64,000 bases of DNA from Myxococcota bacterium (GCA_963676915.2 CAXXVK010000072.1:128001-192000), one strand, 5' to 3'. Counted from the first letter of the stretch, positions 45,858 to 64,000 are shown. The notes: a model not told the origin generated them from the letters alone. A program made the numbers and translations.

Positions 45858-46288
45858 ACAAGTAAATGGTGATGTTAATATCACGAATGAAATGGATATT
45901 ATCACCGCACGCAAAGTAGTGCGAAATGTGGCCGCTGAAATTGGTTTCAGTCTGACCGATGTCACACGAATCGTAACGTCGGCTTCGGAATTGGCCCGTA
46001 ATATCGTGACATATGCGGATAGCGGTGTGATGACCTGGCGGAAAATACACTCGCTAGATGGGCAGGGCATTGAAATTATTTTCACGGATAAAGGTCCGGG
46101 GATTGAAAACCTGGAAGATGCGAAAACCCCTGGTTTTTTCTACAGGCAAAGGGCTGGGTATGGGGATATCCGGTGCCAAGAGACTGATGGGAGAGATGGA
46201 AATCGAATCTGAAATAGGTATGGGTACGAAAGTCACCGTACGAAAATGGGCCAAGAGGTACAACGTTGAACGAACAGCAGGTGCTTAA
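45850..46288 (+). pseudogene. rsbT: RsbT Ser/Thr kinase, split by a +1 frameshift in a T6 run (46134-46139)
   Basis: Frame A gives 'SELARNIV...DKGPGI'; frame B gives 'FSTGKGLGMGISGAKRLM...GTKVTVRKW'. Deleting one T restores a 145-aa RsbT. Confidence 0.85.
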
Positions 46289-47288: not shown

Positions 47289-48178
47289 CAGAAAGAAAAT
47301 TACAAGAAGAGATTTCGTTTCTACGCCAACAGAACCACGATCTTATGGAAGAGTTGGAACGTACGAATCATGATTTGATGGAATTTGCACTCGTGCTTGA
47401 TGCCAAGGTGGAAGAGAAAACGAAAACCATCATGGAAATCAACAGTCAGCTCGAAAAACGAGTCGCTCAGCGAACCCATGAACTTGAGGTGGCGAATAAA
47501 GAACTCGAAGCGTTTGCTTATTCGGTATCACATGATTTGCGTGCTCCATTGCGGGCTATCGACGGATTCAGTCAGGCAATTATCGAAGATTTCTCGGATT
47601 CCTTCGATGATACGGCGAAGCTATATTTCGAGCGCATTCGAAAAGCAACCTTGAATATGGCAAGTCTGATCGATGATTTGCTGGAGTTGTCACGTATCAC
47701 GCGATCTGAGTTCAATGTCAGTGCAATCGATCTCGTTGCTTTGGCAAATGAGACGATCAAACTTTTACACCTGACGGAGCCGGAGAGAAAATACACTTTC
47801 CTTTGCCCTGAACGATTGGTTGTACAAGCAGACCTTGGACTCATGAGCATTGCGCTGAACAACCTGATTGGAAATGCCTGGAAATACACTTCCAAAACGG
47901 AAAGAAGTGTCATCGAATTCGGTACTATTGAGCAGAACGGCAAACCTCTGTATTTTATTAAAGACAATGGGGTGGGCTTCAATAACAAGTATGTGAAAAC
48001 CTTGTTTCAACCTTTTCAGCGCTTACATCCAAGCTCGGAGTTCGAAGGAACCGGAGTTGGTTTGGCAACCGTAAGTCGGGTTATTCAAAGACACAACGGA
48101 GAAATATGGGGAGAAGGCGAAGAAGGAAAAGGTGCGACCTTTTTCTTTACATTGGGTACTCGGTCGGAGGTTTTATAA
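47285..48178 (+). CDS. sensor-less histidine kinase (coiled coil + HisKA + HATPase)
   Basis: 'FAYSVSHDLRAPLR', 'NLIGNAWKY', 'DNGVGF', 'FQRLH...EGTGVGL'. Confidence 0.93.
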   Translation: MTERKLQEEISFLRQQNHDLMEELERTNHDLMEFALVLDAKVEEKTKTIMEINSQLEKRVAQRTHELEVANKELEAFAYSVSHDLRAPLRAIDGFSQAIIEDFSDSFDDTAKLYFERIRKATLNMASLIDDLLELSRITRSEFNVSAIDLVALANETIKLLHLTEPERKYTFLCPERLVVQADLGLMSIALNNLIGNAWKYTSKTERSVIEFGTIEQNGKPLYFIKDNGVGFNNKYVKTLFQPFQRLHPSSEFEGTGVGLATVSRVIQRHNGEIWGEGEEGKGATFFFTLGTRSEVL

Positions 48179-48630
48179 TGAATGCTTTTAAGAGAAATAT
48201 TATTTTTTTAGTCGAAGACAATCCTGACGATGAAATTCTCACTCGTCGTGCCCTGAAAAGTAACAATCTTATCAACGAAATAGTAGTGGCACATGATGGA
48301 CAGGAAGCCATCGATTACCTATCCAATGAAAAGCCTTACGATAAAGGTCGCTTAACAGATTTTATCGCTTTTATTTTGCTGGATTTGAAACTACCGAAAA
48401 TCGGTGGTTTGGAAGTGTTGAAATTTGTCAGGTCCAACCCTGAAACAAAATTGACTCCGGTAATCATCCTAACATCTTCCAAAGAGGAAAGTGATATTGC
48501 GGAAAGTTATCGATTAGGAGCCAATAGTTATGTGCAAAAACCCGTCAGTTTCGCAAAGTTTACTGAATCGGTAAAACTGATGGGAGAGTATTGGTTGATA
48601 TTGAATGAATCTTGCTATCGGGATTTGTAA
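48178..48630 (+). CDS. Rcp1-like single-domain response regulator
   Basis: 'LVEDNPDD', 'LLDLKLPKIGG', 'LTSS', 'GANSYVQKP'; TAATG overlap with the kinase gene. Confidence 0.92.
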   Translation: MNAFKRNIIFLVEDNPDDEILTRRALKSNNLINEIVVAHDGQEAIDYLSNEKPYDKGRLTDFIAFILLDLKLPKIGGLEVLKFVRSNPETKLTPVIILTSSKEESDIAESYRLGANSYVQKPVSFAKFTESVKLMGEYWLILNESCYRDL

Positions 48631-51600
48631 ATGAAAGAAACACTTAACATCCTGTTTGTTGAAGATTCAGAAACGGACGAACTTCTCTTTCTACGGGAAC
48701 TAAGTAAGGATGGTTTTCACGTAGAGTCTTTTCGTGTACAAACTCGTAACGAACTATTTCACGTTTTACAAGAAGATAAATGGGATCTGATTGTTATCGA
48801 TTATGTCGTCCCGGGCTTCGACGGACTGGAAGCTTTGAAAATCTGTACCGAAAAGAAACCGTTTCTCCCTATTATCTCAACAAGTGGAATCGTTAACGAA
48901 AGTGTCATTGTAGAAACCTTGCAATCCGGTGCTTACGATTATGTGTTGAAATCCAACCTCAAAAGAATTCCATCCGTTGTTAAACGAGCCTTGGAAAACG
49001 CGGAAATTCGTAAAAAAAGTGCACGGAACGAAGAAGAAAACATTCGCCTGCAACACGAATTGAAGCTGAAATATGAGATTGCGGAAATCTGCTTGTCAAC
49101 ACCGGAAAAGGATATGTACTCCGCAGTGCTGAAAATTGTGTTGAAAGAACTCAATAGTCCTTTCGGAGTATTTGGTTACGTCAACGACAGAAACTCGCTC
49201 GTATGCCCGTCGATGTCCCATGAGGTATGGGAACGCTGCAAGATGCCGAAGAAAGAGATAGAGTTCCCCAAGAGAAGTTGGAGTGGAATTTGGGGAAAGG
49301 CGTTGGCTGAAAAAAGGATTACTTTAAAAAACGAACCTGGCAAGGTTCCAGATGGTCATATTCCGATTACAAGATCACTCAATGTACCTGTTGTCTTTAA
49401 AGGCAACGTTATTGGTTTGTTTATGGTAGCGAATAAAGAAACCGACTATTCGCAAGCCGACACGTTATTGCTGGAAATGATTTCAAAACATATTTCACCA
49501 ATTCTGCAATCCAGACTTGAGATGGCCAGAGAATTGTATCGCCGTAAAAGGGCGGAGAAACGTTTTGCTCTCGCAATCAGGGGAGCAAATGACGGAGTTT
49601 GGGATTGGGATTTGCGAACGGATGAAATGTATTTTTCACCTCGTTGGAAAGAAATGATCGGCTATCGTGATGACGAATTAGAGAGTCGAATGGAGGTTTG
49701 GGAAGAACGCATCCATCCACAAGATCTGGAACATGTTCGGGGAGCAATTCAATCGTGCATATATGGGGAAGTAGAACGATTTACGCAAGAACACAGAATA
49801 CGACACAAAAATGGGGATTATCGATGGATTCTTATTTGTGGCGCATGTGAAAGGGACGATTTAGGAAAGCCGGTATTACTGGCAGGATCTTATACGGATA
49901 TTACTGAGAAAAAAACGGCAGAGCAGGAACGCAGTCGGCTTTATGAAGAAGCTCGACAAAAAGCGCATGATATGAGTTCGTTACTAAATGGAGCCAAGAA
50001 TGTTTTAGAAAAAGATGATTTTCGAGTGATTGCCAGACAATTATTCGATGAGGCGTGCGAGAATACAGGTGCTACTTCCGGGTACGTTGCATTACTAAGT
50101 GAAGATGGAGAGGAAAACGAAGTATTGTTTCTGGAATCAGGAGGATTGCCTTGCGATGTAGATCCTGGTTTGCCGATGCCTGTTCGAGGGTTGCGTGGTG
50201 AGGTTTATCGGTCCGGAAAAGTAGTCTGCCACAACGATTTTACGAATAGCGAATGGCAAAAGTTCCTACCCCAAGGACATGTTTCACTGAAAAACGTCCT
50301 GTTTGCTCCTCTAAATGTAGGGAAAAGAACTATAGGGATAATAGGGTTGGCCAACAAGGCTTCCGACTTCACAAAACGGGATTTGAGTATTGCAGCAGGA
50401 TTTGGGGAGCTGGCAGCTATTGCGCTCAAAAACTGGAAAATCCACGAAGCATTACGGAAAAGCGAAGAACAGCATCGCTTGTTGGCCGAAAATACGTCCG
50501 ATGTAATCTGGATGATGGGTCTTGATACTACCTTGACCTATGTGAATCCTGCCATACAGAAGAAGTTTGGGTTTTCACCGGAGGAGTTTATTGGAACTCG
50601 CCTTGGTAGCCATACGGACCCAAAAAATTTGCATATTATAAATAAGGCGCTCAAGGATAGTTTAACCAGGTCTCCAAATTACAAGACAATAACGTTCGAG
50701 TCTGAAATGTTTAGAAGCGATAAAACGTCGGTTCCTGTTGAAATATCCGCGAAAATCATTTCGGACGATGTTGGAGAACCCATAGCGCTGCAAGGCGTAA
50801 TTCGAGATATAACCGACAGAAAAAAAGCGGAAAAAGAAATTCTTGAACATCAGGAGCAATTGGAAAGAAAAGTAGAGGAACGCACTGTTGATTTGAAAAA
50901 AGCGCTTCAGCAGACCGAAGAATCACGAGAACGCATCGACACGATTTTAAAATCCGTAGCGGATGGATTGATCGTAACGGATAAGCACAATCATGTGTTG
51001 TTGATGAACCGAGCTGCAGAGGATATTTTGGGAATTCGTTTTAGTGATGTACTCAATCGTTCTATCGAGTACGCTATAGATGACAATACTCTTCGAGAAA
51101 AAATTATTACTACATTGGGTAAACAGCAAACCGGGTACGAATTCCACTTCACGCATGAAGACCCGGATACCCGGATAACCAAAACCATGCGTGCACGAAC
51201 CTCGGTCGTGCCGGATCATTTCGGGGGAATCAGCGGGATTGTAACCATTTTGCAGGATATTACCAAAGAACATGAAATCGACCGTATGAAAACGGAATTT
51301 ATATCCACAGCGGCTCACGAGTTGCGCACGCCGTTGACATCTATTCGTGGTTTTTCAGAAATATTGATGATTCGAGACAATATTCCAAAAGAAGAGAAAA
51401 ATAAATACCTTGGGCATATTCATAAACAATCGATTGGCTTGTCAAACATTATCAACGATCTGCTCGATATTTCTCGGATTGAATCAGGACGGGGATTTTC
51501 CCTGGATAAAAAACTTTGTGATGGTCAAACTGCGATAAAAAATGTTTTGCCGCATTTCAAAGAAGTTAGTCCAAAACATACATTTGTGGCAAAATTACAT

Positions 51601-51975
51601 GAAAAACCCGTTGAGCTATGGGTTGATGTCGAGAAAATGGAACAGGTTCTACGCAATCTTCTGAGCAATGCCGTCAAATATTCACCCAATGGGGGAACAA
51701 TAACCGTTAGTACGTGCTTGGATCAAAATGAGGATGAAGAAAATAAAGAATACTTTGTCATGTCCATTCAAGACGAGGGAATGGGTATGACACAGAACCA
51801 AGTTTCTCGTATTTTTGAGAAATTTTATCGAGCGGATGCTTCAAATACTGCGATTGAAGGGACAGGGTTAGGTATGAGTATTGTGAGGCACCTTGTGAAG
51901 GCTCATGACGGGAAAATAACAATCTCGAGTGAAAAAGGCACAGGAACGACCGTAAATATTTATTTGCCTTTATAG
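48631..51975 (+). CDS. hybrid histidine kinase (REC-GAF-PAS-GAF-PAS-PAS-HisKA-HATPase)
   Basis: REC 'FVEDSETD', PAS 'GANDGVWDWD', H-box 'AAHELRTPLTSI', 'NAVKYS', 'GTGLGM'. Confidence 0.93.
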   Translation: MKETLNILFVEDSETDELLFLRELSKDGFHVESFRVQTRNELFHVLQEDKWDLIVIDYVVPGFDGLEALKICTEKKPFLPIISTSGIVNESVIVETLQSGAYDYVLKSNLKRIPSVVKRALENAEIRKKSARNEEENIRLQHELKLKYEIAEICLSTPEKDMYSAVLKIVLKELNSPFGVFGYVNDRNSLVCPSMSHEVWERCKMPKKEIEFPKRSWSGIWGKALAEKRITLKNEPGKVPDGHIPITRSLNVPVVFKGNVIGLFMVANKETDYSQADTLLLEMISKHISPILQSRLEMARELYRRKRAEKRFALAIRGANDGVWDWDLRTDEMYFSPRWKEMIGYRDDELESRMEVWEERIHPQDLEHVRGAIQSCIYGEVERFTQEHRIRHKNGDYRWILICGACERDDLGKPVLLAGSYTDITEKKTAEQERSRLYEEARQKAHDMSSLLNGAKNVLEKDDFRVIARQLFDEACENTGATSGYVALLSEDGEENEVLFLESGGLPCDVDPGLPMPVRGLRGEVYRSGKVVCHNDFTNSEWQKFLPQGHVSLKNVLFAPLNVGKRTIGIIGLANKASDFTKRDLSIAAGFGELAAIALKNWKIHEALRKSEEQHRLLAENTSDVIWMMGLDTTLTYVNPAIQKKFGFSPEEFIGTRLGSHTDPKNLHIINKALKDSLTRSPNYKTITFESEMFRSDKTSVPVEISAKIISDDVGEPIALQGVIRDITDRKKAEKEILEHQEQLERKVEERTVDLKKALQQTEESRERIDTILKSVADGLIVTDKHNHVLLMNRAAEDILGIRFSDVLNRSIEYAIDDNTLREKIITTLGKQQTGYEFHFTHEDPDTRITKTMRARTSVVPDHFGGISGIVTILQDITKEHEIDRMKTEFISTAAHELRTPLTSIRGFSEILMIRDNIPKEEKNKYLGHIHKQSIGLSNIINDLLDISRIESGRGFSLDKKLCDGQTAIKNVLPHFKEVSPKHTFVAKLHEKPVELWVDVEKMEQVLRNLLSNAVKYSPNGGTITVSTCLDQNEDEENKEYFVMSIQDEGMGMTQNQVSRIFEKFYRADASNTAIEGTGLGMSIVRHLVKAHDGKITISSEKGTGTTVNIYLPL

Positions 51976-52001
51976 AAAAGGCGATATTCTGGAGTTGTTT
52001 G

Positions 52002-52370
52002 ATGAAAACCATACTTGTAGTTGATGATCGGGCGGAGATCCGTGAAATTGTAAAAGTAACCTTGAGTATTGAGGATTTTACGATTTTAGAGGCAAAGAAC
52101 GGTGATGAAGCCGTGCGGCTGGCAAGATTGCACAAACCGGACTTGATTATTATGGATTTGATGATGCCAGGTACTATCGATGGTCTCAAAGCAACAAAAA
52201 TCATCAAAGCCGACAATCGTTTGAATGCATGTAAAATTATCATTCTGACTGCTAGAAATCAAAAAGAAGATGAGGAAGCCATTGCCCAAGTGGGAGCCGA
52301 TGATTATTTCATTAAGCCGTTTAGTCCGTTGGAATTGATGAATAAGGTGGATCAGATATTGTCAGAATAG
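52002..52370 (+). CDS. single-domain response regulator
   Basis: 'LVVDD', 'IMDLMMPG', 'LTA', 'KPFSP'. Confidence 0.92.
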   Translation: MKTILVVDDRAEIREIVKVTLSIEDFTILEAKNGDEAVRLARLHKPDLIIMDLMMPGTIDGLKATKIIKADNRLNACKIIILTARNQKEDEEAIAQVGADDYFIKPFSPLELMNKVDQILSE

Positions 52371-52717
52371 AGCGAAAGATCCATTTAAATGACAGAAATG
52401 CGTTTGTGACATGGAGGGAGAAACGGAAGTCATGTCAAAAAAGTCGACTTCAAAAAGACAAGGTGTGGACCGTATATGCCGAAAAAATGACGATAGTCCT
52501 GTTTGAATTGGTCGCAAATTGTGAAGTTTTATCCCTGTATTTGTTTGTCTACGACCTAAAAGTGTTAAAATTTAGGGAGAATAGGAAATAAATAAAGGAA
52601 AAAACGAAGAAATTTAAATACCAGAATTTACCAAAAATACTGTAAATATTCGATAAGACAACAAAAAACTGCCATTTCGTAATCTTCTTACTCTCTTTCT
52701 AAAGAAACTCCCAAATC

Positions 52718-52759
52718 CTTAGGACTCTCTTAAGAAACGTTTGTTAGCGTTTTATTAAG
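52718..52759 (+). promoter_or_regulatory. candidate OmpR-family tandem boxes
   Basis: CTTAGG-N5-CTTAAG (52718-34) and TTAGC-N6-TTAAG (52744-59), 11-bp periodicity. Confidence 0.35.
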
Positions 52760-52870
52760 GACAGGTTGCATTGTCGTCGATCGGGTGTCAATCGACCGCT
52801 TTCAAGGTGTGTAATCACAAATCTTACCCGATGCAACGGCAAAGCGATGAGTAGGAACAGGAGATGGGTC

Positions 52871-54784
52871 ATGAAAAAGAAAAGCCGGACAATTAATATG
52901 GCTCTGTTGCTTGCCATACTGCTGTTCGTCGGAATCGGCGGATGCAGTGACTCGGGGAGTATCAGTGGAATCGACGGGAACAATGACGGAGACGATGACT
53001 GGACCGTTTCCGATGGCGACGGCGACGACGATACGGGCTATCCGTACCCATCGAACGGCGGCGATACCAGTGGAGAAAGCGAAGTCGATATCCAGAATCC
53101 GGCTGACCGCGATGTGGAAGAGTTGCCGGAAATCGACTACGAAGGTGCAACGGAAATCGCTTTAAGTTGCAGTGGAAGCACTATTACCGGTCCTGGAGCC
53201 GTTGAAGATGATAGCGACATTGTGATTTCCGAAGCGGGTTCCTACATTATTAGCGGGAAACTCTGTGACGGTCAGATCCGTGTGGATACCGAAGACAAAG
53301 ATCCCGTGGTCATCGTTTTCAACGGTATCGATGTCACCTGTTCCGATAGCGCACCGTTCTATGTTCTGGATGCGAAAGACGTGCAGATTATGCTGCAAGA
53401 AGGAACGGACAACAGCCTAACCGATGGAAGTTCCTACGTTTTCGAGTCCGCCGAGGAAGATGAACCCAACGCGGCACTGTTCAGCAAGGCCGATCTGGTT
53501 CTCTGCGGTAGTGGGAGCCTTACCGTCAAAGCCAATTATAACGACGGAATTGCTAGCAAAGACAGCCTTTGGATTACCGACGGATCGTACACCATTTCCG
53601 CGCAGGACGACGGCATCCGAGGCAAGGACGATCTTACGATCGACGGTGGAGAGTTCAATGTCGTCGTTCGTGGCGATGGCATGACCTCGGACAACGAGGA
53701 AGATGCGGAAAAAGGGTTCATTTTGATTACAGACGGTACCTTCGACATCGTGGCGAGTGGGGATGGCCTTGTCGCTGAGACCGGGATGATCATTTCCGGC
53801 GGTACCTTCGATATCACGGCAGGTGGCGGCAGTTCGGCGACGCTTTCCGATTCGGAATCCGGTAAAGGAATCAAAGGGATAGGTAGCGTCAGCATCACCG
53901 GCGGTTCGTTCATTATCGATTCCGCCGATGATGGCGTGCACTCGGATGGTGACATTTACATCGGTGGCGGAGCATTCGAGATCAGTGTGGCTGAAGGTGG
54001 TGGCGGTGGAGGCATGGGAGGTATGACCTCGAATGGCCAGGATGGTATCCATTCCGACACCACCATCCAGATCGATTCCGGTGCTATTGTTGTTACCAAG
54101 TCTTACGAAGGCATCGAAGCGACGACGATTATCATCAATGGCGGAACGATCGACGTTACGGCGACGGACGACGGATTCAACTGCGCCGGTGGCGATGGTT
54201 CGAGCGGTTGGGAGCCGGGACCGGGGCAAACCACAAGTGGCGATTATTACTTGTATATCAATGGTGGAAATATCTGGATGGACGCCGCAGGCGACGGACT
54301 TGATTCGAATGGCAGCATCGAAATTTCCGGCGGCGTGATCCTCGTAAACGGTCCGACCAACGATGGCAATGGCGCGATCGACTCGGGAGATTCTCGGGAC
54401 GACACCATCAGCGTCAAAGGCGGGTTGCTTGTTGCGGCGGGAAGTTCCGGAATGGCCGAAGCGCCTGATACCATTTCAAGTCAGAATTCTGTAATTGTTT
54501 ACCTTTCCAATGCGCAACAAGGCGGGCAGATTTTCCACATCGAGAAAAGCGATGGAACGGATATGTTGACCTACGCGCCGTCGAAAACCTACGAGTCGGT
54601 CGTGTTTTCCTCTCCGGAATTTACGACGGGCCAGTACAGCGTGTACCTAGGTGGGAGTTCGACTGGTACGTATTACAAAGGGTTGTATACCGACGGAACG
54701 TATACTCCCGGCACCTTGTACACGACATTTACGGTAAGTTCGGTCACAACACAGGTTGGTAACGGCGGGAATCCTCGTCCTTAA
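52871..54784 (+). CDS. DUF4353 / Cthe_2159-type beta-helix lipoprotein
   Basis: Lipobox IGGC; 'ISEAGSYIISG', 'ALFSKADL', repeated 'DGI/DGL...I.I.GG', 'KSYEGIEA', 'DGLDSNG'. Confidence 0.88.
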   Translation: MKKKSRTINMALLLAILLFVGIGGCSDSGSISGIDGNNDGDDDWTVSDGDGDDDTGYPYPSNGGDTSGESEVDIQNPADRDVEELPEIDYEGATEIALSCSGSTITGPGAVEDDSDIVISEAGSYIISGKLCDGQIRVDTEDKDPVVIVFNGIDVTCSDSAPFYVLDAKDVQIMLQEGTDNSLTDGSSYVFESAEEDEPNAALFSKADLVLCGSGSLTVKANYNDGIASKDSLWITDGSYTISAQDDGIRGKDDLTIDGGEFNVVVRGDGMTSDNEEDAEKGFILITDGTFDIVASGDGLVAETGMIISGGTFDITAGGGSSATLSDSESGKGIKGIGSVSITGGSFIIDSADDGVHSDGDIYIGGGAFEISVAEGGGGGGMGGMTSNGQDGIHSDTTIQIDSGAIVVTKSYEGIEATTIIINGGTIDVTATDDGFNCAGGDGSSGWEPGPGQTTSGDYYLYINGGNIWMDAAGDGLDSNGSIEISGGVILVNGPTNDGNGAIDSGDSRDDTISVKGGLLVAAGSSGMAEAPDTISSQNSVIVYLSNAQQGGQIFHIEKSDGTDMLTYAPSKTYESVVFSSPEFTTGQYSVYLGGSSTGTYYKGLYTDGTYTPGTLYTTFTVSSVTTQVGNGGNPRP

Positions 54785-54797
54785 ACTCACAACGGTT

Positions 54798-54834
54798 TGT
54801 TTGCTCGGGATGTTTAAAACCTCCCGAGCAAGCA
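54798..54834 (+). terminator. stem-loop after the DUF4353 gene (terminator or mRNA stabiliser)
   Basis: TGTTTGCTCGGGA...TCCCGAGCAAGCA; no U-tract on the + strand. Confidence 0.5.
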
Positions 54835-55016
54835 GAAGCAAACGCAGAAAAACGGTGGTCATTCCGTTTTGACTCACGACCCGGGTTGGTTGAAGTGTGG
54901 AGGCTCGACTTGAAACAGCAGGCGATCCGCACCGGTTCTCGAACGATGATATTGGCAGTGTGCTGACGTGATCCGATTGCAAGAAGGCTTCGAGCGCGAG
55001 AGAGGCAGGGCGAACC

Positions 55017-55697
55017 ATGGAAAGTTTACTACTAAGTTTCGGATCGGTGAAACTGGAATGGCAGCATTCATTGTTGTCGCTGCTATTGGCCTTTCTGCTT
55101 TCGAGCCTCGTTGCCGTCATATACGAGAAGACGTTTAGAGGTCTTTCCTGGTCGGTGAACCTGCTCCAGGCCATGATTCTCGGCAGCATGGTGGCCTGCA
55201 TCATCATGATCGCGATTGGTGACAACATTGCCCGAGGTATTGGTATCGTAGGTTCGTTGGCGATTATCCGTTTCCGAACCAATCTTCGTGATCCTCGCGA
55301 CCTTGTGTTCCTTTTCGCATCATTGGCGATTGGTGTGGCCTGCGGTGTTCAGAGCTATTCCACCGCCATCGTCGGTACGGTCATGTTCTCGATGGTCAGT
55401 ATCGGTTTGCAGATTACGGAATTCGGAAAGCATCGCCGCCACGATGGTATGGTCCGGTTCCAGGTTCCTGCCAATGGCGAAGCCTCTGCGAAAGTGTCCG
55501 AGATCCTGGAGCGTATCCCTCATCATTTCGCTCTCGTCACCCGGCGTAGCGTGGCCCAAGGTTCCATGATGGATTACGCCTACCAGGTGAAATTCAATCA
55601 AGACAAGGATTGTGAGTTGTTGATGCAGGAGTTGGAAAGCATCAAGGGAATTACCGGATTGGCCTATCTGAACCAGCAAACCACAGTGGAAGTGTAG
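55017..55697 (+). CDS. DUF4956 membrane protein (MgtC/SapB-like TM domain + ACT-like C-domain)
   Basis: 'IGDNIARGIGIVGSLAIIRFRTNLRDPRDLVFLFASLAIGVACG'. Confidence 0.88.
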   Translation: MESLLLSFGSVKLEWQHSLLSLLLAFLLSSLVAVIYEKTFRGLSWSVNLLQAMILGSMVACIIMIAIGDNIARGIGIVGSLAIIRFRTNLRDPRDLVFLFASLAIGVACGVQSYSTAIVGTVMFSMVSIGLQITEFGKHRRHDGMVRFQVPANGEASAKVSEILERIPHHFALVTRRSVAQGSMMDYAYQVKFNQDKDCELLMQELESIKGITGLAYLNQQTTVEV

Positions 55698-55704
55698 GTG
55701 GACC

Positions 55705-56886
55705 ATGAACTTCATCAAGAAATACGGCTTTATCGGTCTATGGGGTATTTTTGCTGCTGTGGCATTCGGGATGTACTACTTTTACGCGGTCAACGCCGAT
55801 TTCATCGGGGTTGTCGAAACCCGAACCCACAAACTCAGCGCACAGGAATCGGGACGTATACAAAAAATCCTTGTTTCCCTAGGTGAGCAGGTGTCTGCCA
55901 ACCAACTCCTTGTTGCGATAGACACATCGGACCTCGATACGGAAAAAACCTGGTTGCAGGAAGAACTCAAGCGCTTGAAAAGCCTCGAAGAAGCCGACCG
56001 CAGCAGGTACGCACTGGAGTACGAAAAACTTCGCCTCCAGAGCGATGCGGATGCCTCACGTCTCGATCAATGGAGATCGGAACTCGAAGTGAAAAAGGCG
56101 GAGTTGCAAGCGGTAAACGATCAAATCCACCGTTTGGAACAAGCTCAAAAAGCCGGGCTTGGAAGAACCAAGGAAATGTCCGATCTTGTGATTCGGCGCG
56201 ATTCCCTGGCCAAGTACATCAGCGAACAAAACGCTGTCATGAAGAACAACTCGCGCAAATACGTGTCACGCAAGAAATCCGATAACCAAACGGAAAGCGA
56301 GCGCGTGGTGATGTCGTTGCTCGGCGAGCGAATGGAGCGTATCAACGAAATCAAACTTCGACTGAAAATTCTCGAAACGCGCAAAGACCGGAGCCAGGTG
56401 ATTACTCCCTGCGAGGGACGGGTTGTCAAAATCAATTACATGCCAGGCGATGCCGTAGAAGCTTTCCAAACCATTCTGACGATTGAGGAACCTCAGGCGG
56501 AGTTCATCGATGTCTACGTTCCTGAAACCTCCGACCGAACGCCTCTTCTGGGGGAACGTGTCGCCGTGTATCCTCACCGAACCGGAAAATTCGATTGCGA
56601 AGGTACGGTTGTTTTCGTCGATCCGGGATTCTCGGCAATTCCCGAACGTCTGACCTTCCGCAACCTCGTGTACTGGGCCAGGAAATTTCGTGTGCAACTC
56701 GATCCGGATCATCACATGATGCCGGGAGAAGCCGCCAAAGTTCGAATGCTTGGAAATGTTTCGACGGCTTCTTTGGCTCAAGTCGCCAAGTTGGCCAAGA
56801 CTGTACCCGTCGATGATTCGGCACATAAAAAGCCGGAGCGAAGCCAAGCCAAACCTCTTCTTGTGGCTCAACCGGAAGGAAGGTGA
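55705..56886 (+). CDS. HlyD/MFP periplasmic adaptor
   Basis: N-terminal TM, lipoyl halves 'SGRIQKILVSLGEQV...LL' and 'ITPCEGRV...PGDAV', long coiled coil. Confidence 0.85.
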   Translation: MNFIKKYGFIGLWGIFAAVAFGMYYFYAVNADFIGVVETRTHKLSAQESGRIQKILVSLGEQVSANQLLVAIDTSDLDTEKTWLQEELKRLKSLEEADRSRYALEYEKLRLQSDADASRLDQWRSELEVKKAELQAVNDQIHRLEQAQKAGLGRTKEMSDLVIRRDSLAKYISEQNAVMKNNSRKYVSRKKSDNQTESERVVMSLLGERMERINEIKLRLKILETRKDRSQVITPCEGRVVKINYMPGDAVEAFQTILTIEEPQAEFIDVYVPETSDRTPLLGERVAVYPHRTGKFDCEGTVVFVDPGFSAIPERLTFRNLVYWARKFRVQLDPDHHMMPGEAAKVRMLGNVSTASLAQVAKLAKTVPVDDSAHKKPERSQAKPLLVAQPEGR

Positions 56887-56890
56887 TGTC

Positions 56891-58174
56891 ATGGTTCGTA
56901 TGCCGTCACAGATTCTGATCGCTTGTCTTCTCGTGATGGGTGGATCTTTGAACGCCTTTTCTCAGGGAGAGAATGCAAACGGCGATTCTTTTGAAAACGC
57001 TTCCATCACGGAAAGCGAAGCCATACAAAAAAGTCTCGAAAAAAGTCGTGGATTGCGAAAAATCCAAAGCGAAGTAGCTGCCCAGAGCAAAATCTCTGCC
57101 TCTGCCAGATACGATGTAAAAAACCCGGAACTCCGCTTGCGGGACATTTCCACGAAATATTTCGATAAAGACGAAGACAACAAGCAATTCCAATTCGGGC
57201 TTCGCTGGAAACCTCCGCAGATCGGCGAGTTGGGAACGAAACAGCGCAAAGAACGCGTCAACTTGTGGGAAAAGAAAACGAAAGCATGGGAAGCCCGTCA
57301 GGCTCTGATTGCTGATGTCAGGGAAGTTTACGCTACGCTTGGTATGCTTCAATCGTACTCCGGTCTTACCCAACAACAAGCAGAGTTGCATAGACAATTG
57401 TTTCTCGTGGTCGAAAAACTCGGAGAGCTTGGACGAAGATCCCCGCTCGATCGCATCAAAGTGCGTCGAAAATATTTAAAAGCCAAAAAAGAGGCCGCCG
57501 GAACCGCACAGCGATACGAGGAGACGAAGCAGCAATTCTCGGCACTTACAGGAGAAGAAGAAGGCGTAACGGTTTTGTGGTCCGAACCGGAGGTACTTCC
57601 TATAGATGAAGCCATCATTCACGAACGAGCGGTTACCGCTCATCCTGCGGTAGAGTTGGCAAGGCAACGCAGCGAATTTTTCGCTTACCGGTACAAGGCG
57701 GAGCGATATAAGCTTATTCCCTGGTTTACCTTCGTCGATGTTTCCTACCAGTATGAAAGCAAAAAGAAGGATTCGGGAGAGCTGGTATTGGGCATCGAAT
57801 TGCCGCTTTTCAATTGGAATCTCGGCGAGTTGCGTGCCACCGAAATCGAGCGGAAGCAAGGGAAGCTCTCGTCTAGTCTGGCCATCGCTTCGATCGATCG
57901 CAAATTGAAAGAACGTTTGGCCGAATATGACAAAGCTGTGGCTGAATATCGATCCTTGAAAGAGGAAACGGACGGATCGCTTTCGCAATCGGAAAACATG
58001 GTCGCACAAGCGAAGCTACAGGAATTGCCGGAAGACGAAATTCTTGAGATGGAAATCTCGAATATCGAACTGCGAATGATGCTGTTGGAAGCAGGATTTC
58101 GAGTTAAAAAAGCTGCAATCGAACTCTGCCGAACGGCCGGAGTGGAAAACGACAGAGAATTGACTCGGGAATAG
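56891..58174 (+). CDS. TolC-family outer-membrane channel
   Basis: Signal peptide; two OEP-like repeats, 'ALIADVREVY', 'GIELPLFNWNLG'. Confidence 0.78.
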   Translation: MVRMPSQILIACLLVMGGSLNAFSQGENANGDSFENASITESEAIQKSLEKSRGLRKIQSEVAAQSKISASARYDVKNPELRLRDISTKYFDKDEDNKQFQFGLRWKPPQIGELGTKQRKERVNLWEKKTKAWEARQALIADVREVYATLGMLQSYSGLTQQQAELHRQLFLVVEKLGELGRRSPLDRIKVRRKYLKAKKEAAGTAQRYEETKQQFSALTGEEEGVTVLWSEPEVLPIDEAIIHERAVTAHPAVELARQRSEFFAYRYKAERYKLIPWFTFVDVSYQYESKKKDSGELVLGIELPLFNWNLGELRATEIERKQGKLSSSLAIASIDRKLKERLAEYDKAVAEYRSLKEETDGSLSQSENMVAQAKLQELPEDEILEMEISNIELRMMLLEAGFRVKKAAIELCRTAGVENDRELTRE

Positions 58175-58183
58175 GTGGTTGCC

Positions 58184-58963
58184 ATGTCTGCTGGAAAATC
58201 GATGGTTATCAGTCGGTACGAGAGCAAATACCTTGTTCCAGAGGCTAAAGCGCGTGCCATTCGTAACTTCATCATGGGTTTTTGCACCCCCGATAGTCAC
58301 GCCGACGCCAACGGTCGGTACGTCGTCAATAATTTCTACTTCGACACGCCCGACCTGCGGTTTTATTACGACACGAAGTACAAACAGTACAATCGTTTCA
58401 AGCTAAGAATGCGATATTACGGGGATATTCCTGAAGAACTTCTCTGGCTCGAAATCAAGCATAAGGTACAGAACGTAACATGGAAAACCCGAAGAAACTG
58501 TATGGTATCCGATTGGGATTCGATTTTCGAGTGCGAAGACTCTTTGGCGCAAAAATCGGAGAACGTCTCCCTGAGGGATTCTTTCGAAAATGCCGTCATC
58601 CGGTTCGGAGCCGAACCCAAGGTTCACGTTCGTTACGTACGTGAACCGTATATTTGCGATTTCGAAGAATATTGCCGAATCACGTTCGATCGTTGCCTTT
58701 CTTTCCGATCAACGGACGGGTCCATGAACCTCGTAAGCAACAAACCCTTCCTATATTATGATGATGTCGTAACCTCCGTTTTCGAGGACGACGATTCGCC
58801 GGTGATTCTCGAAATCAAAACCGAAAACCAGGTTCCCATATGGGTGATGGAACTGATTCGGACGTTCCAATTGCGGCGGCGCGGGTTTTCGAAATACTGT
58901 TACGCCATCGATAACAGCAAAGAAAGAGCCGGAGGAGGATTGCGGGTCAACGCATGTCTGTAA
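58184..58963 (+). CDS. VTC-domain polyphosphate polymerase (CYTH/TTM fold)
   Basis: 'RYESKY', 'YFDTPD', 'KLRMRYY', 'LEIKHK', 'RYVREPY', 'RITFD', 'ILEIK', 'FSKY'. Confidence 0.9.
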   Translation: MSAGKSMVISRYESKYLVPEAKARAIRNFIMGFCTPDSHADANGRYVVNNFYFDTPDLRFYYDTKYKQYNRFKLRMRYYGDIPEELLWLEIKHKVQNVTWKTRRNCMVSDWDSIFECEDSLAQKSENVSLRDSFENAVIRFGAEPKVHVRYVREPYICDFEEYCRITFDRCLSFRSTDGSMNLVSNKPFLYYDDVVTSVFEDDDSPVILEIKTENQVPIWVMELIRTFQLRRRGFSKYCYAIDNSKERAGGGLRVNACL

Positions 58964-58995
58964 TTCTTTTCAATATATGCTTTTGAAAAGAATTA
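58961..58995. terminator. AT-rich inverted repeat between convergent genes
   Basis: TAATTCTTTTCAA-N9-TTGAAAAGAATTA. Confidence 0.45.
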
Positions 58996-59059
58996 TGCCA
59001 TATTCAAGTGATTCGACGTCTTGTGACATCTCATGCTGTTGGATTCGTAGTGTTGTAAA

Positions 59060-60025
59060 TTACTCGAAACGTTTGACACGCCGATGGCAGTATGGTGCTT
59101 TTCCTGTTTTGAAATAGTAATCCTGATGATAACTTTCCGCTGTCCAGAAAGTTCCGGCCGGTTCGAGCTTCGTGGCGATGCTCAATCCTTTCTTTTTCAA
59201 TGTTTCCATCAGCTTTTCGGCGATTTCACGTTGTTTGTCTGAGGTATAGAACACTGCCGAGCGGTATTGTTCTCCGATATCCGGTCCTTGCCGATTGATT
59301 TGTGAAGGATCGTGGATTTCGAAAAACAGCTTGGCCAACGTCTCATAGGTCGTTTTTTGAGGATCGAATACGATTCGTACCGTTTCAGCGTGTCCTGTAG
59401 TTCCCGAACAGACCTGTTCATAACCGGGAGACTCCACGGTACCACCCATGTACCCCGATTCCGCTCGTTCGACACCGGGCAGGTTTTCGAAATGGTATTC
59501 TACTCCCCAAAAACATCCTCCTGCGAAAAAAGCTTCTTCAAATTGTGGTGGAGCTTTTTCCGGTTGGAAATTCAACGAAATGGAATTAACGCAGTGTCTC
59601 GTGTTTTTCGGAGTGAATCCCTCCCCGCGAAAGACGTGCCCCAAATGCGCCCCGCAGGTATTGCAAAGAATTTCGGTACGTTGGCCATCCGCGTCGAGTT
59701 CTTCGCGCACCGCTCCGGGAAGGGCTTCATCAAAGCTTGGCCATCCGCAATGTGCGTCGAATTTGTCCTCAGACCGAAACAGGGTCGCACCGCAGCGTTT
59801 GCAACGATATACGCCTTTTTCATGGTGGTCGGAATAGAGACCGGTGAAAGGTCGTTCCGTTCCTTTATGAACGATGACTGCTTCTTCTTCCGGGGTCAGT
59901 TTATTCCACGTCATGTCGTTGTACTCTTTTCCTTGTTCGGCAGGGCTATGTGTTGTCACCGCAAGAATGAAAACCAGGGCGAAAACCAGCGAAAATAGTA
60001 TCCACCGTATTTCGAATCGTCTCAT
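59060..60025 (-). CDS. msrAB: bifunctional methionine sulfoxide reductase MsrB-MsrA with signal peptide
   Basis: MsrB 'GTERPF', 'CGWPSF', 'HLGHVF', 'RHCVNS'; MsrA 'GGCFWG', 'GTTGHAE', 'AESYHQDY'. Confidence 0.95.
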   Translation of the reverse strand: MRRFEIRWILFSLVFALVFILAVTTHSPAEQGKEYNDMTWNKLTPEEEAVIVHKGTERPFTGLYSDHHEKGVYRCKRCGATLFRSEDKFDAHCGWPSFDEALPGAVREELDADGQRTEILCNTCGAHLGHVFRGEGFTPKNTRHCVNSISLNFQPEKAPPQFEEAFFAGGCFWGVEYHFENLPGVERAESGYMGGTVESPGYEQVCSGTTGHAETVRIVFDPQKTTYETLAKLFFEIHDPSQINRQGPDIGEQYRSAVFYTSDKQREIAEKLMETLKKKGLSIATKLEPAGTFWTAESYHQDYYFKTGKAPYCHRRVKRFE

Positions 60026-60219
60026 GATGCAATTACTATCAATTTCTCAATTAACAATAATTATAAAATAACAATGTTTTTGCTGAAATCAATGCTCTAT
60101 GTCTTGAATGAAGGTTTTTGAAAAAGCGAGACGATTTCCGAATTATGCGTGGAAGACAACACTGAATTGACACTCCTTTCTACAAGGTGTATAGAAGAGA
60201 AAAACGCAATGGAGAAACC

Positions 60220-60621
60220 ATGGAAAACACAGGAAGATTCAATCAGGCGATGAGGAACAATCGCGGGTATTCGATGATGCAATGGATGGTCTTCATCTTG
60301 ATCGGTGTGGTCCTCTATGCATCGTATATTGTGATTCCGGTGTATATGGCCGATTATCAACTTAAAAAAGGGTTGACTCGGATGGCGATGGACTTGGCCG
60401 GAGAAACGGATACCCATGATGTTTACAAGCGGATGTCTAAAAAGATTTTCGTGAAAATCGGTATCGATCTAACCGCTGAGCAGTTGAAAATCTCCCGAAA
60501 TGGAAACACGTTGATAGTGGATGTCGAATATGAGGCTCCTGTGGAGTTTCTTCTTTACGGACCGCATACGTTCAAATTCCGTCATCATGCGCAAGCTACT
60601 GCAACTCAGATGATAGAATGA
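60220..60621 (+). CDS. DUF4845-like (pilin-like) small membrane protein
   Basis: 'NRGYSMMQW' followed by a hydrophobic helix, 'IPVY', 'VDVEYEAPV'; RBS GGAG. Confidence 0.65.
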   Translation: MENTGRFNQAMRNNRGYSMMQWMVFILIGVVLYASYIVIPVYMADYQLKKGLTRMAMDLAGETDTHDVYKRMSKKIFVKIGIDLTAEQLKISRNGNTLIVDVEYEAPVEFLLYGPHTFKFRHHAQATATQMIE

Positions 60622-60683
60622 GTTTTCCTGAAGCATCTTTTCTTTTTAGCCGATTCTTTTTCTAAATCAACCAGCGGTATGAC

Positions 60684-61304
60684 ATGAGTTTACTTTCTTC
60701 GACGCCTTCGAATTCTCGTTGGCGTAATGGTTTTTGGGGGATAGCCCTTCTCATCGTAGTGAACTTTTGCATGGCTTGTGGAGGCGGATACACGCCCACC
60801 CCTCGACTCATCGAAAAAAGTATGAAAATCTCGAAAAGCTGCCAGCTTGATTTCAGATCCGAAACAGGGCAATGTCTGGCTTTGGAAGACGATCGTCTCG
60901 TAGAAGGGGAATGCCAACTCATTGACGAGGAATGTTCCGAGCGCTTTTTCATTACCAAGAAATCTGGACGGAGCCGCTTCGTTCTGGTCAACGCGCTTCG
61001 TCCTTGCTACTCGCAATGGCTGGTGGACAAATACACCGACGAGGATTCCGACTGGTACGAACATGGTGACTACCGGGTTGTGGAATTCAATCTGGGAACC
61101 CCGATAGAAAGCCCTAAATACTACGAGGAAGCGGTAATCCAGCTTCTATTTCAATCCCATTGGGATGCGTTGGAAAGTCCTTCGGGAGAGATGTGCTATT
61201 ACCGCGTGGAAACCAGTGTCAAAAACCTGATTGGCGGTTCGTATTCCCTCAAACTCTGGGATGAAGATCGCGAATTGATGCTGGAAACAACGTTCGATCA
61301 CTAA
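60684..61304 (+). CDS. hypothetical lipoprotein
   Basis: Hydrophobic stretch plus lipobox CMAC; 206-aa ORF co-directional with the upstream gene. Confidence 0.65.
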   Translation: MSLLSSTPSNSRWRNGFWGIALLIVVNFCMACGGGYTPTPRLIEKSMKISKSCQLDFRSETGQCLALEDDRLVEGECQLIDEECSERFFITKKSGRSRFVLVNALRPCYSQWLVDKYTDEDSDWYEHGDYRVVEFNLGTPIESPKYYEEAVIQLLFQSHWDALESPSGEMCYYRVETSVKNLIGGSYSLKLWDEDRELMLETTFDH

Positions 61305-61350
61305 ATTTCAAACGAAGCCTTTCATTTTCCTGCATTTTCAACACAAAGCA

Positions 61351-63747: not shown

Positions 63748-64000
63748 TATTCGCTGGTTCCGATTGAAGTGATTCTTTCCGAGTCGAATCCGATTCGATC
63801 GGTAAAAACCACCCAAAGTTGTTTTCATCCACTCCGCGTCAAAAGAACAGTATACCGATTCCCGGCTTTTCGAGCAATTCCACAATGTAAAATTCGAAAA
63901 CCTGAAGATGGTCAACAAACCTCACCAAGAATTCTTCATAAGTTGTGCGGCGTAGCCGACTGCGGTACACTCCCCAAAATTTTCTAATGCCTTTAAATGA

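Follow-up and report, generated by a model that had tools for sequence, protein, structure and literature searches.

The window, a 64,000-nucleotide stretch of DNA from a Myxococcota bacterium, carries a compact cassette of four genes encoding, head to tail, a DUF4956 membrane protein, a HlyD-type periplasmic adaptor (MFP), a TolC-type outer-membrane factor (OEP) and a VTC-domain protein. This arrangement is far beyond chance: the four genes recur together in the same genome and at more than 100 other loci. We propose, with a probability of roughly 0.45, that their products constitute one envelope-spanning machine for synthesis-coupled export, with polyphosphate as its most likely cargo. No description of a VTC–DUF4956–MFP–OEP cassette was found in the literature searched.

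Organization of the cassette

ORF calling and Pfam searches identified five co-directional ORFs with the expected domains at positions 52871–58963, all on the plus strand. The first (52871..54784) encodes a predicted lipoprotein of the Cthe_2159 family (PF14262, E-value of 3.6e-97 and 325.2 bits against a gathering threshold of 25.8). The cassette proper comprises the genes for the DUF4956 inner-membrane protein (55017..55697; PF16316, 49.1 bits against a cut-off of 30.6), a short-form adaptor of the HlyD/EmrA type with 393 residues (55705..56886; HlyD_D23, 1.1e-10; Biotin_lipoyl, 3.1e-7; HlyD_3, 6.5e-7), the TolC-type OEP (56891..58174; PF02321, E-value of 5.2e-12, in two stretches) and the VTC-domain protein (starting at 58175 with GTG or at 58184 with ATG and ending at 58963; PF09359, E-value of 3e-35).

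Direct reading of the sequence places 7 nt between the TAG of the DUF4956 gene and the ATG of the adaptor gene, and 4 nt between the TGA of the adaptor gene and the ATG of the OEP gene; the TAG of the OEP gene is followed by GTG without a gap, or by ATG after 9 nt. These spacings of 7, 4 and 0–9 nt bear out the tight packing of the four genes that had been claimed in an earlier note on this DNA, and a purine-rich stretch lies 5′ of the start at each of the three junctions. The longest ORF for the OEP begins with TTG at 56750, and the ATG at 56891 yields the 4-nt spacer together with a signal-peptide-like N-terminus that has no lipobox cysteine.

The interval between the Cthe_2159 and DUF4956 genes measures 232 nt and contains a perfect inverted repeat (54801..54831), its 10-bp arms (54801–54810 and 54822–54831) enclosing a loop of 11 nt. 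The repeat starts 17 nt past the Cthe_2159 stop codon, has no T-run and drew no call from the terminator scan; it may mark a transcript boundary. Surrounding genes encode sensor kinases, response regulators, an MsrB–MsrA fusion and an Ig-like repeat protein, and Pfam detected no ABC, RND or MFS domains in the larger ORFs between 46266 and 63918.

The putative polymerase and its membrane partner

The VTC-domain protein has 262 residues and a single VTC domain (PF09359 aligned over positions 2–231 of 235); no reliable fusion of a VTC domain to another protein was found. A profile of 28 bacterial homologues matches the catalytic domain of Vtc4 (3g3q) with 1.6e-25 over positions 3–246 of 255, and matches Vtc2 (1.3e-11) and Vtc3 (about 2e-7) more weakly. 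In these 28 proteins, with numbering counted by hand, the equivalents of Vtc4 R264 and E426 (R75 and E210) do not vary, and that of R266 (R77) is nearly invariant. K15 aligns with Vtc4 K200, and S236 (nearly invariant) and K237 (invariant) align with S457 and K458, all of which we take to be functional sites. The triple mutation R264A/R266A/E426N inactivates yeast VTC, according to the available text of PMC9911596. The retention of the Vtc4 catalytic residues upholds the earlier proposal of a Vtc4-type polymerase candidate, and the sequence makes the protein likely to be a stand-alone, cytoplasmic member of the triphosphate-tunnel fold family and a putative polyphosphate polymerase. PPK1, PPK2 and Ppx-GppA were not found in the genome, and VTC is therefore its sole recognizable polyphosphate enzyme; PPK1 was also not found in five relatives. 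The literature searched contained no demonstration of polyphosphate synthesis by any bacterial VTC-domain protein.

All 28 aligned homologues of the membrane protein match DUF4956 in Pfam. Its AlphaFold2 model (pLDDT of 83.2) comprises five helices and a β-α-β-β-α-β domain, for which the top Foldseek matches are ACT domains, with the C-terminal domain of MgtC (2lqj) at rank 26. Five helices and an ACT-like C-terminal domain are likewise the architecture of the MgtC family, but the DUF4956 proteins match that family below the Pfam cut-off: the window protein scores 23.8 bits against a gathering threshold of 31.4 (PF02308, E-value of 6e-5), and 8 of the 28 proteins give sub-threshold matches along the entire membrane domain (E-values up to 0.01; best 3.2e-6). 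MgtC is not, to our knowledge, a pore, and we know of no adaptor or tunnel enzyme with which it is paired. Conservation among the DUF4956 proteins peaks in an Arg-rich loop, 'IIRFRT...DPRD', in which R85 and R87 are invariant; because of the positive-inside rule, the loop is predicted, by eye, to face the cytoplasm. A single DUF4956–MFP fusion was found, and it looks like frameshift read-through.

DUF4956 is proposed to be the inner-membrane partner of the adaptor, and together with the soluble Vtc4-like enzyme it would fill the place of an ABC, RND or MFS pump. Using ATP, the enzyme would synthesize polyphosphate on the cytoplasmic side and pass the chain to a DUF4956 oligomer serving as the pore, with polymerization and the membrane potential providing the outward drive. 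The dedicated adaptor and TolC-type channel, in contact with this assembly, would conduct the product across the periplasm and outer membrane, and secreted CotH, LTD or Cthe_2159 proteins might bind, use or shape it at the surface. Descriptions of TolC-type channels usually give them an electronegative interior, which would be awkward for a polyanion unless cations travel along.

The same components could serve a cargo other than polyphosphate, a reading that we consider unlikely and still a serious contender. DUF4956 would then be a transporter, the VTC-domain protein, instead of polymerizing, would hydrolyse nucleotides or triphosphates as an energizer or regulator like an ABC ATPase, and the exported cargo would be a small molecule, an ion complex or a different polymer. 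The conservation data fit this scheme and the polyphosphate model equally well, and an acidic residue (Glu or Asp) occupies the R-x-[E/D]-x-K motif in 28/28 aligned bacterial VTC proteins, unlike Vtc4, which has Thr; this is partly reminiscent of ExExK, a motif of hydrolytic tunnel enzymes. The ACT-like domain modelled for DUF4956 hints at control by small ligands, and hydrolases and cyclases are among the members of the tunnel-enzyme superfamily named in the available text of PMC4641920. Nevertheless, the VTC profile is closest to catalytic Vtc4, with full-length coverage, and the residues required for polymerization are invariant. Phosphate chemistry is further indicated by the phytase-like domain on most cassette adaptors, an extra C-terminal domain present in 54 of 102 that matches Pfam Phytase-like (a phosphoesterase-type propeller) in 20 of the 28 tested, and by occasional PHO4 or PhoU genes among the neighbours.

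Conservation and inheritance of the linkage

The recurrence of the cassette was assessed in two samples. In the first, 60 Myxococcota VTC loci hand-picked from 150 matches listed (about 173 in total) in 301 genomes, all four genes are present at 29 loci and VTC, DUF4956 and MFP at another 7–8. VTC and DUF4956 stand alone at 20, one of which (L016) has an MFP gene cut by a contig end, and VTC occurs without the other three at 4. The second sample consists of 80 loci retrieved through close DUF4956 relatives, with phyla taken from record titles; 63 are complete, 13 run into contig ends and 4 are genuine exceptions. They span at least eight diderm phyla: Myxococcota, Latescibacterota, KSB1, Gemmatimonadota, Calditrichota, Fidelibacterota, Ignavibacteriota and Acidobacteriota.

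DUF4956, MFP and OEP form a constant block with VTC at either end (DUF4956–MFP–OEP–VTC at 45 loci, VTC–DUF4956–MFP–OEP at 33), and VTC–DUF4956–MFP occurs without a detected OEP at 13 loci, some of them truncated. The VTC and DUF4956 genes are paired at 56/60, then at 67/80 and 77/80 loci, most of the gaps being contig ends. The DUF4956 gene always lies immediately 5′ of the adaptor gene, the usual place of a pump gene.

In a tree of DUF4956 with 205 rows, MFP linkage requires 4 changes, against a mean of 68.5 after shuffling, and none of 500 shuffles gave so low a value. The MFP-linked clade is broken only at L114 and at the truncated L141, leaving one true loss. Its sister clade (80 loci) combines VTC with CotH or LTD genes; MFP/OEP genes occur at 0/80 of these loci and the VTC–DUF4956–CotH triad at 71 to 77. 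As this sister clade includes diderms without MFP/OEP, outer-membrane crossing is not intrinsic to the VTC–DUF4956 pair. The association of HlyD and TolC with VTC and DUF4956, on whose conservation the earlier note had staked its proposal, holds in many diderm phyla and has been passed down within one large DUF4956 clade. The distribution does not follow a simple division between diderms and monoderms: the linkage spans many diderm phyla, but many diderm Myxococcota, Acidobacteriota and Planctomycetota have the pair without MFP/OEP.

The adaptor has a hydrophobic N-terminal membrane anchor and lipoyl and β-barrel domains. Its best NCBIfam matches, EmrA/EmrK (6.8e-16) and NHLP-bacteriocin HlyD (1.3e-15), are all far below the cut-offs, and by sequence the cassette adaptors appear to be a subfamily of their own. 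Membership of a type I secretion system was rejected: type_I_hlyD scores 28.8 bits with the adaptor (cut-off of 208.65), type_I_sec_TolC scores 25.1 bits with the OEP (E-value of 8e-6, cut-off of 225.15) and the cassette has no ABC gene.

Other export systems often share their outer-membrane factor, or even their adaptor, or encode it at a separate locus, a circumstance in favour of the view that the adaptor and OEP, or the OEP alone, serve a pump encoded elsewhere and are co-regulated with VTC and DUF4956 in a surface or matrix programme that includes CotH and LTD proteins. The 13 loci without an OEP are in keeping with this, as is the existence of the VTC–DUF4956–CotH triad without MFP/OEP. 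In the available text of PMC7112168, CotH, a 'poly-phosphate polymerase' and DUF4956 lie beside the pel exopolysaccharide operons of streptococci, clostridia and bifidobacteria, and in that of PMC2879425 a VTC–DUF4956–CotH group lies in NELoc-2 of Clostridium perfringens. These Gram-positive groups resemble the sister clade in having the VTC–DUF4956 pair with CotH neighbours, but differ from the cassette in that these descriptions, as far as available, include neither an adaptor nor an OEP and assign no function. Service to a distant pump is improbable, however, given the near-zero spacers between DUF4956 and adaptor genes in both gene orders across 106 non-redundant loci, the tracking of DUF4956 phylogeny by the linkage and the distance of the adaptor from every NCBIfam family. 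Nor does a transporter recur nearby: no recurrent transporter family was present among the neighbour clusters of cassette loci, in a screen that used no dedicated RND or ArAE models. ABC-motif ORFs occur within ±9 kb at 4/106 loci, none of them adjacent, in agreement with the earlier description of a unit devoid of ABC, RND and MFS transporters.

Surface-protein neighbours

CotH and LTD proteins are the usual companions of the cassette, and genes for secreted proteins flank 34/60 Myxococcota and 55/80 close-DUF4956 loci. Cthe_2159 proteins are encoded near the cassette at three loci only: in the window, in its nearest relative (L008), where the gene is inverted, and upstream at L082. The N-terminus of the window protein (MKKKSRT...LFVGIGGC) contains a lipobox-like motif, read by eye, and the protein has an acidic linker rich in Asp and Gly. 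We regard it as an accessory at the cell surface whose gene is loosely linked to, and not part of, the tight operon; its functional link to the cassette, assumed in the earlier note, is weak.

The frequency of such flanking genes, and the presence of bacteriocin-type and type-I HlyD models among the best NCBIfam matches of the adaptor, might be taken to indicate type-I-like secretion or anchoring of the CotH, LTD or Cthe_2159 proteins through an unusual inner-membrane part. We regard this as very improbable, since the lipoprotein-type leader of the window Cthe_2159 protein and the type-IX secretion tails on LTD proteins adjoining cassettes in two MAGs indicate other export routes for flanking proteins, and the same protein families accompany VTC and DUF4956 without adaptor or OEP at 71/80 sister-clade loci. 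Accidental juxtaposition particular to this genome, favoured only by the general expectation that adjacent genes may be functionally unrelated, is refuted by the paralogous cassette of identical order in the same genome and by over 100 loci from several phyla.

Relation to known export and synthesis systems

Established tripartite exporters (HlyBD–TolC, MacAB–TolC, EmrAB–TolC and AcrAB–TolC) share with the cassette a membrane-anchored lipoyl/β-barrel adaptor, a two-repeat OEP and a single operon with the adaptor gene directly 3′ of that for the inner-membrane component, the OEP being at times unlinked. AaeAB and MdtNOP represent a fourth inner-membrane class of such exporters. The inner-membrane component of the cassette is not ABC, RND, MFS or ArAE, a tunnel-fold enzyme is proposed to take the place of the energy module, and most cassette adaptors bear the additional phytase-like domain. 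The window OEP, like the adaptor, scores far below the cut-offs of all curated subfamilies.

In synthase-dependent exopolymer secretion (alginate Alg8/Alg44/AlgK/AlgE, cellulose Bcs and PNAG Pga), polymerization at the inner membrane itself pushes the chain outward, with no additional pump, through periplasmic and outer-membrane parts devoted to it, and Alg44 has an adaptor-like periplasmic domain. The proposed machine would share this pump-free, polymerization-driven concept. Its polymer would be inorganic, its synthase is predicted to be soluble and unrelated to glycosyltransferases, and its outer-membrane part is a TolC-type barrel rather than a porin with TPR repeats.

The eukaryotic VTC complex (Vtc4/Vtc3/Vtc1) has a catalytic domain of the same Pfam family, with the R264, R266 and E426 equivalents kept in the cassette enzyme, and, in the available text of PMC9911596, couples synthesis to translocation through a channel with a lining of basic residues, which makes it a precedent for the proposed machine. 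The almost invariable pairing of the cassette enzyme with a small multi-helix membrane protein fits such coupling. However, the SPX domain and fused membrane domain are absent from the cassette enzyme, DUF4956 is unrelated to the three-helix Vtc1-type channel subunit, and the product would leave the cell through a duct spanning two membranes instead of entering the lumen of an organelle.

The proposal of the earlier note that VTC and DUF4956 replace the pump thus keeps its core, namely the conserved linkage, the pump-free unit, the position of DUF4956 in the slot of a pump gene and the Vtc4 residues, and needs correction as to Cthe_2159, a rare neighbour, and the simple diderm–monoderm split. 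The cassette points to an undescribed kind of export machine.

Gene content of the window

Five co-directional genes on the forward strand encode a Cthe_2159-family protein (positions 52871–54784; Pfam E-value of 3.6e-97), a DUF4956 protein (55017–55697; Pfam score of 49.1 bits with a cut-off of 30.6), a HlyD-type membrane-fusion protein (MFP; 55705–56886, Pfam), a TolC-type outer-membrane factor (OEP; 56891–58174, with two OEP stretches in Pfam) and a stand-alone VTC-domain protein that begins at 58175 or 58184 and ends at 58963 (Pfam E-value of 3e-35). The ORF listing, the translations and Pfam agree on this arrangement, which the earlier note had described together with the absence of a pump. 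Pfam detected no transporter among the remaining large ORFs from 46266 to 63918, which comprise sensor kinases, response regulators, an MsrB–MsrA fusion and an Ig-like repeat protein; given this and the gene content, that observation is correct as written.

The DUF4956 and MFP genes are joined through TAG, 7 nt and ATG, and the MFP and OEP genes through TGA, 4 nt and ATG; at the OEP/VTC junction, TAG is followed directly by GTG, or by ATG after 9 nt. The Cthe_2159 gene is set apart, 232 nt upstream of DUF4956, with a 10-bp perfect inverted repeat just 3′ of its stop codon. A scan for promoters and terminators gave results equal to or worse than those for shuffled sequences.

The MsrB (SelR)–MsrA (PMSR) fusion (59060–60025, reverse strand) has a hydrophobic N-terminal leader and is convergent to the VTC gene. 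The signalling genes upstream of the cluster (46266–52370, forward strand) encode a HATPase/PP2C-like protein, a histidine kinase, a receiver, a hybrid kinase of 1114 aa with GAF and PAS domains, and a receiver-only protein. The last of these (51999–52370) has PhoB as its best NCBIfam match, far below the cut-off, and this match was set aside as evidence of phosphate regulation.

A conserved four-gene cassette

The genome of the window (5.18 Mb in 74 contigs, 90.8% complete) holds a second VTC gene, which lies inside a second cassette with the same order of DUF4956, MFP, OEP and VTC (locus L003 on contig C49, 4781–9553, minus strand). The MFP of this paralogous cassette is a long form of 675 aa. 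On its flanks lie a BNR/Ig-like/FGE-sulfatase protein of 1779 aa and a cNMP-binding protein, and large secreted-looking proteins with HYDIN/Cep192_D4-type Ig-like domains adjoin both cassettes (61351–63918 in the window and 9652–14991 in L003, both on the minus strand). The nearest public relative, labelled in its record as a Myxococcota MAG, was the only match in a single-protein scan with the adaptor of the window.

Of the 301 genomes sampled from this phylum, 148 have VTC matches. A first set of loci, covering 8 kb on either side of 60 of the 150 VTC matches listed, was picked manually so as to cover many family codes and keep clear of contig ends, and is therefore not a random sample. Genes were detected with profiles grown by jackhmmer from the proteins of the window against crude longest-ORF translations; the loci under study thus also supplied the profiles, related loci are not independent of each other, and ORF lengths are inflated in GC-rich genomes because the longest frame was called. 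All four genes are present in 29 of the 60 loci, VTC with DUF4956 and MFP in 7, VTC with DUF4956 only in 20 (in one of which, L016, the MFP is cut by the contig end) and VTC alone in 4. VTC matches were also recorded in the control genomes of Bacteroides thetaiotaomicron, Corynebacterium glutamicum and Methanosarcina acetivorans, and CotH matches in the same three and in Bacillus subtilis.

When one genome per species was scanned with eight aligned, closely related DUF4956 proteins, a second set of 80 loci was obtained; it is tilted by construction to the DUF4956 type of the window and shares 10 places with the first. The complete cassette is found in 63 of these loci, and a further 13 run into a contig end, or come close to one, ahead of the missing gene. 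The true deviants number four: L104 lacks the OEP, L114 the MFP and L117 the VTC gene, and L130 has a weak MFP and no OEP. By record label, the set covers Myxococcota, Latescibacterota, KSB1, Gemmatimonadota, Calditrichota, Fidelibacterota, Ignavibacteriota and Acidobacteriota, with a few MAGs labelled Pseudomonadota, Bacteroidota or Spirochaetota; carriers labelled at genus level include Nannocystis and Caldithrix MAGs. Two gene orders predominate, DUF4956-MFP-OEP-VTC (45 loci) and VTC-DUF4956-MFP-OEP (33 loci), so that DUF4956-MFP-OEP forms a constant block with VTC at either end. The paralogous cassette and the complete cassettes of both sets bear out the expectation that HlyD and TolC are kept beside VTC and DUF4956 elsewhere, and chance juxtaposition of the cassette genes is excluded.

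VTC and DUF4956 without an adaptor

Four DUF4956 proteins encoded at loci lacking an MFP served as queries to collect a contrast set of 80 further loci, which belongs mainly to Chloroflexota (39) and Myxococcota (23), followed by Planctomycetota, Acidobacteriota and others. VTC is adjacent in 77 of the 80, and CotH or lamin-tail-domain (LTD) proteins are present in 71; neither MFP nor OEP was detected in any of the 80. Both this and the second set are anchored on DUF4956 subtypes.

On a FastTree phylogeny of 205 non-redundant DUF4956 domains, the label 'MFP adjacent' requires 4 changes; shuffled labels require 68.5 on average, and none of 500 shuffles was as low. The 106 MFP-linked rows make up a single run of clades in which L114 and the truncated L141 are the only breaks. 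As the tree carries long-branch warnings and has no outgroup, a single gain with few losses is only its simplest reading. The division between diderms and monoderms along which a comparison had been proposed holds for the linked loci, which all lie in diderm phyla; it does not by itself account for the split, which follows DUF4956 subfamily, and many diderm loci lack MFP and OEP.

A candidate polyphosphate export machine

In the proposed mechanism, which the data fit, DUF4956 and VTC would stand at the inner membrane in the place of a pump, and the dedicated adaptor and TolC-type channel would complete a duct across the envelope. We assign this complete one-machine model, with polyphosphate as the exported cargo, a probability of 0.45. 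The weaker claim, of a single functional module formed by the four genes irrespective of what it carries, has much better support. In a more far-reaching version, to which we give slightly lower odds, a Vtc4-like polymerase would dock on a DUF4956 oligomer resembling MgtC and make inorganic polyphosphate, and the chain would be extruded directly through the adaptor and channel to the cell surface. There it would be used by secreted CotH-type kinases and by LTD or β-helix proteins as a phosphoryl donor, as a scaffold or as part of the matrix.

The VTC enzyme and the cargo

Twenty-eight bacterial VTC proteins, drawn both from MFP-bearing and from MFP-less loci, gave a profile that matches the catalytic domain of yeast Vtc4 (PDB entry 3g3q) with an E-value of 1.6e-25, Vtc2 with 1.3e-11 and Vtc3 with approximately 2e-7. 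Counted along the printed alignment, the invariant K15 of the bacterial proteins corresponds to Vtc4 K200, the invariant R75 and nearly invariant R77 to R264 and R266, K92 to K281, E210 to E426, and S236 and K237 to S457 and K458. The roles of Vtc4 K200 and of S457/K458 are reportedly described in the 2009 structure paper. The motif R-x-[E/D]-x-K has Glu or Asp in 28 of 28 bacterial proteins, and Thr in Vtc4. The triple mutant R264A/R266A/E426N is the catalytically impaired form that served for the yeast VTC cryo-EM structure, and the yeast channel is lined by basic residues needed for translocation (PMC9911596). No VTC fusion was found among the longer proteins, which is weak evidence.

No Pfam match to PPK1, PPK2 or Ppx-GppA was obtained in the genome of the window at its 90.8% completeness, using Pfam models only; the two VTC genes are thus its sole recognisable polyphosphate-synthesis genes. 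PPK1 is likewise absent from all five relatives of the same order (G012, G042, G030, G018 and G005), two of which are single-contig assemblies. The order therefore appears to be without PPK1, and its polyphosphate biology may run entirely through the cassette system. In a rival model, the architecture is the same and the tunnel enzyme would act as energiser or regulator for another cargo; we judge it unlikely, though the most probable of the alternatives.

The DUF4956 membrane protein

The AlphaFold2 model of the DUF4956 protein of the window (28-row alignment; pLDDT of 83.2 and pTM of 0.65) has five helices followed by a β-α-β-β-α-β domain. In a Foldseek search of the PDB, ACT domains rank top (3ibw, 7.1e-4) and the C-terminal domain of Mycobacterium tuberculosis MgtC is at rank 26; the membrane part has no match among these solved structures. 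In 8 of 28 homologues, a sub-threshold Pfam MgtC match spans the entire membrane domain. Only R85 and R87, both within the motif IIRFRT...DPRD, are invariant. In our reading of the model, with Lys and Arg counted by eye in the loops, the loop bearing this motif, the ACT-like domain and the loop that follows helix 1 would be cytoplasmic. This face would be a meeting place for the soluble VTC enzyme or the nascent polyanion.

An apparent DUF4956–adaptor fusion (P0003, 512 aa, one sequence on a 2-kb contig) was considered as a Rosetta stone and rejected as a probable frameshift read-through. Its scrambled, Gly/Pro/His-rich linker replaces the end of the ACT-like domain just before the normal adaptor start.

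Adaptor, outer-membrane factor and the missing pump

The MFP and OEP of the window belong to no curated NCBIfam subfamily. The best matches of the MFP are EmrA/EmrK (58 bits against a cut-off of 390.8) and NHLP-bacteriocin HlyD, and that of the OEP is type-I TolC (25 bits against 225). By crude ORF length, 41 of 102 cassette MFPs measure approximately 250–450 aa and 54 approximately 650–800 aa. The MFP of the window is a short form of 393 aa without an extra C-terminal domain; its paralogue and nearest orthologue are long. The extra domain of the long MFPs comprises approximately 300 aa, has the conserved start 'RFEPSG..WL...VSDDTG' and was located in L003 (6842–7741, minus strand), in L008, the nearest relative (5775–6674, plus strand), and in 26 other loci. 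It matches Pfam Phytase-like (PF13449) in 20 of the 28 tested (best E-value of 2.6e-9) and DUF6929 and DUF6910 in 19 of 28 each; the domain of the L003 paralogue scores 22.4 bits with Phytase-like, below the Pfam cut-off of 27.6. A profile search of PDB sequences with this domain returned nothing meaningful.

To our knowledge, adaptor/TolC ducts have so far been tied to ABC, RND, MFS and ArAE transporters, and the adaptor and OEP might here really serve a pump encoded elsewhere. All-against-all clustering of the non-cassette ORFs revealed no recurrent transporter family. An MFS gene occurs under three locus identifiers, two of which are one place; in a motif search directed at the ABC class only, ORFs with Walker A and ABC signature motifs lie within 9 kb on either side in 4 of 106 non-redundant cassette loci, adjacent in none. 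We consider service to a distant pump improbable.

Neighbouring genes

An OmpR-type two-component pair recurs at 13–14 loci. These recurrent systems were considered as phosphate regulators and dismissed, being generic OmpR/CpxR/BaeR-like proteins that are not assignable to PhoBR. A protein of approximately 350 aa without a Pfam match (11 loci) and a PPDK_N-like protein of approximately 700 aa (7 loci) recur near VTC/DUF4956; loci with one or other of these include L018, L024, L042, L078, L108, L111, L139 and others. PHO4, a PHO4-family phosphate transporter, and PhoU_div lie within a few kilobases of the cassette at three distinct loci: L011 (10445–12466; the same place as L144), L035 and L125.

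The most frequent companions are CotH-kinase-family and LTD proteins, often fused together, which are present in 34 of the 60 first-set and 55 of the 80 second-set loci. In two MAGs, LTD-repeat proteins of approximately 680 aa lie directly 3′ of the cassette (L077, 5300–7336; L085, 6473–8539) and end in a Por_Secre_tail (type IX secretion) domain. Cthe_2159 is confined to the window, its nearest relative (on the opposite strand) and L082, and two CotH genes lie elsewhere in the genome of the window. The position beside the cassette thus seems to be an interchangeable site for a surface protein. Secretion of these proteins by the cassette itself is very improbable, as they have export routes of their own.

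Relation to known gene groups and significance

Related gene groups have been reported in Gram-positive bacteria: cotH, a poly-phosphate polymerase, DUF4956 and DUF4832 form an accessory group beside pel operons (Whitfield et al., PMC7112168), and the NELoc-2 locus of Clostridium perfringens has VTC-domain genes, 222–226-aa membrane proteins and CotH (PMC2879425). In neither description is an adaptor or an outer-membrane factor mentioned. No literature naming DUF4956 together with VTC, or on the function of bacterial VTC with CotH or polyphosphate, was found in a search that misses most subscription journals, so the novelty of the cassette is to be read as 'not found' in the literature searched. 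A review of VTC distribution deals, in the part accessible, with eukaryotes only. According to published abstracts, polyphosphate is secreted by some bacteria or accumulates outside their cells and affects hosts and predators; these abstracts specify no route of export.

We tentatively propose, at rather less than even odds, that the cassette represents a class of tripartite envelope machine not recognised before, the fifth such class, dedicated in diderms to the secretion of polyphosphate that serves CotH-type kinases and LTD or β-helix proteins. If polyphosphate is the cargo, the cassette would be a concrete polyphosphate export machine, would explain what the widespread VTC and DUF4956 genes of bacteria do and, more speculatively, would offer a possible source of phosphoryl donor for extracellular CotH-type kinases. 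If the cargo differs, DUF4956 with a tunnel-fold enzyme would still be a new type of inner-membrane module for adaptor/TolC ducts.
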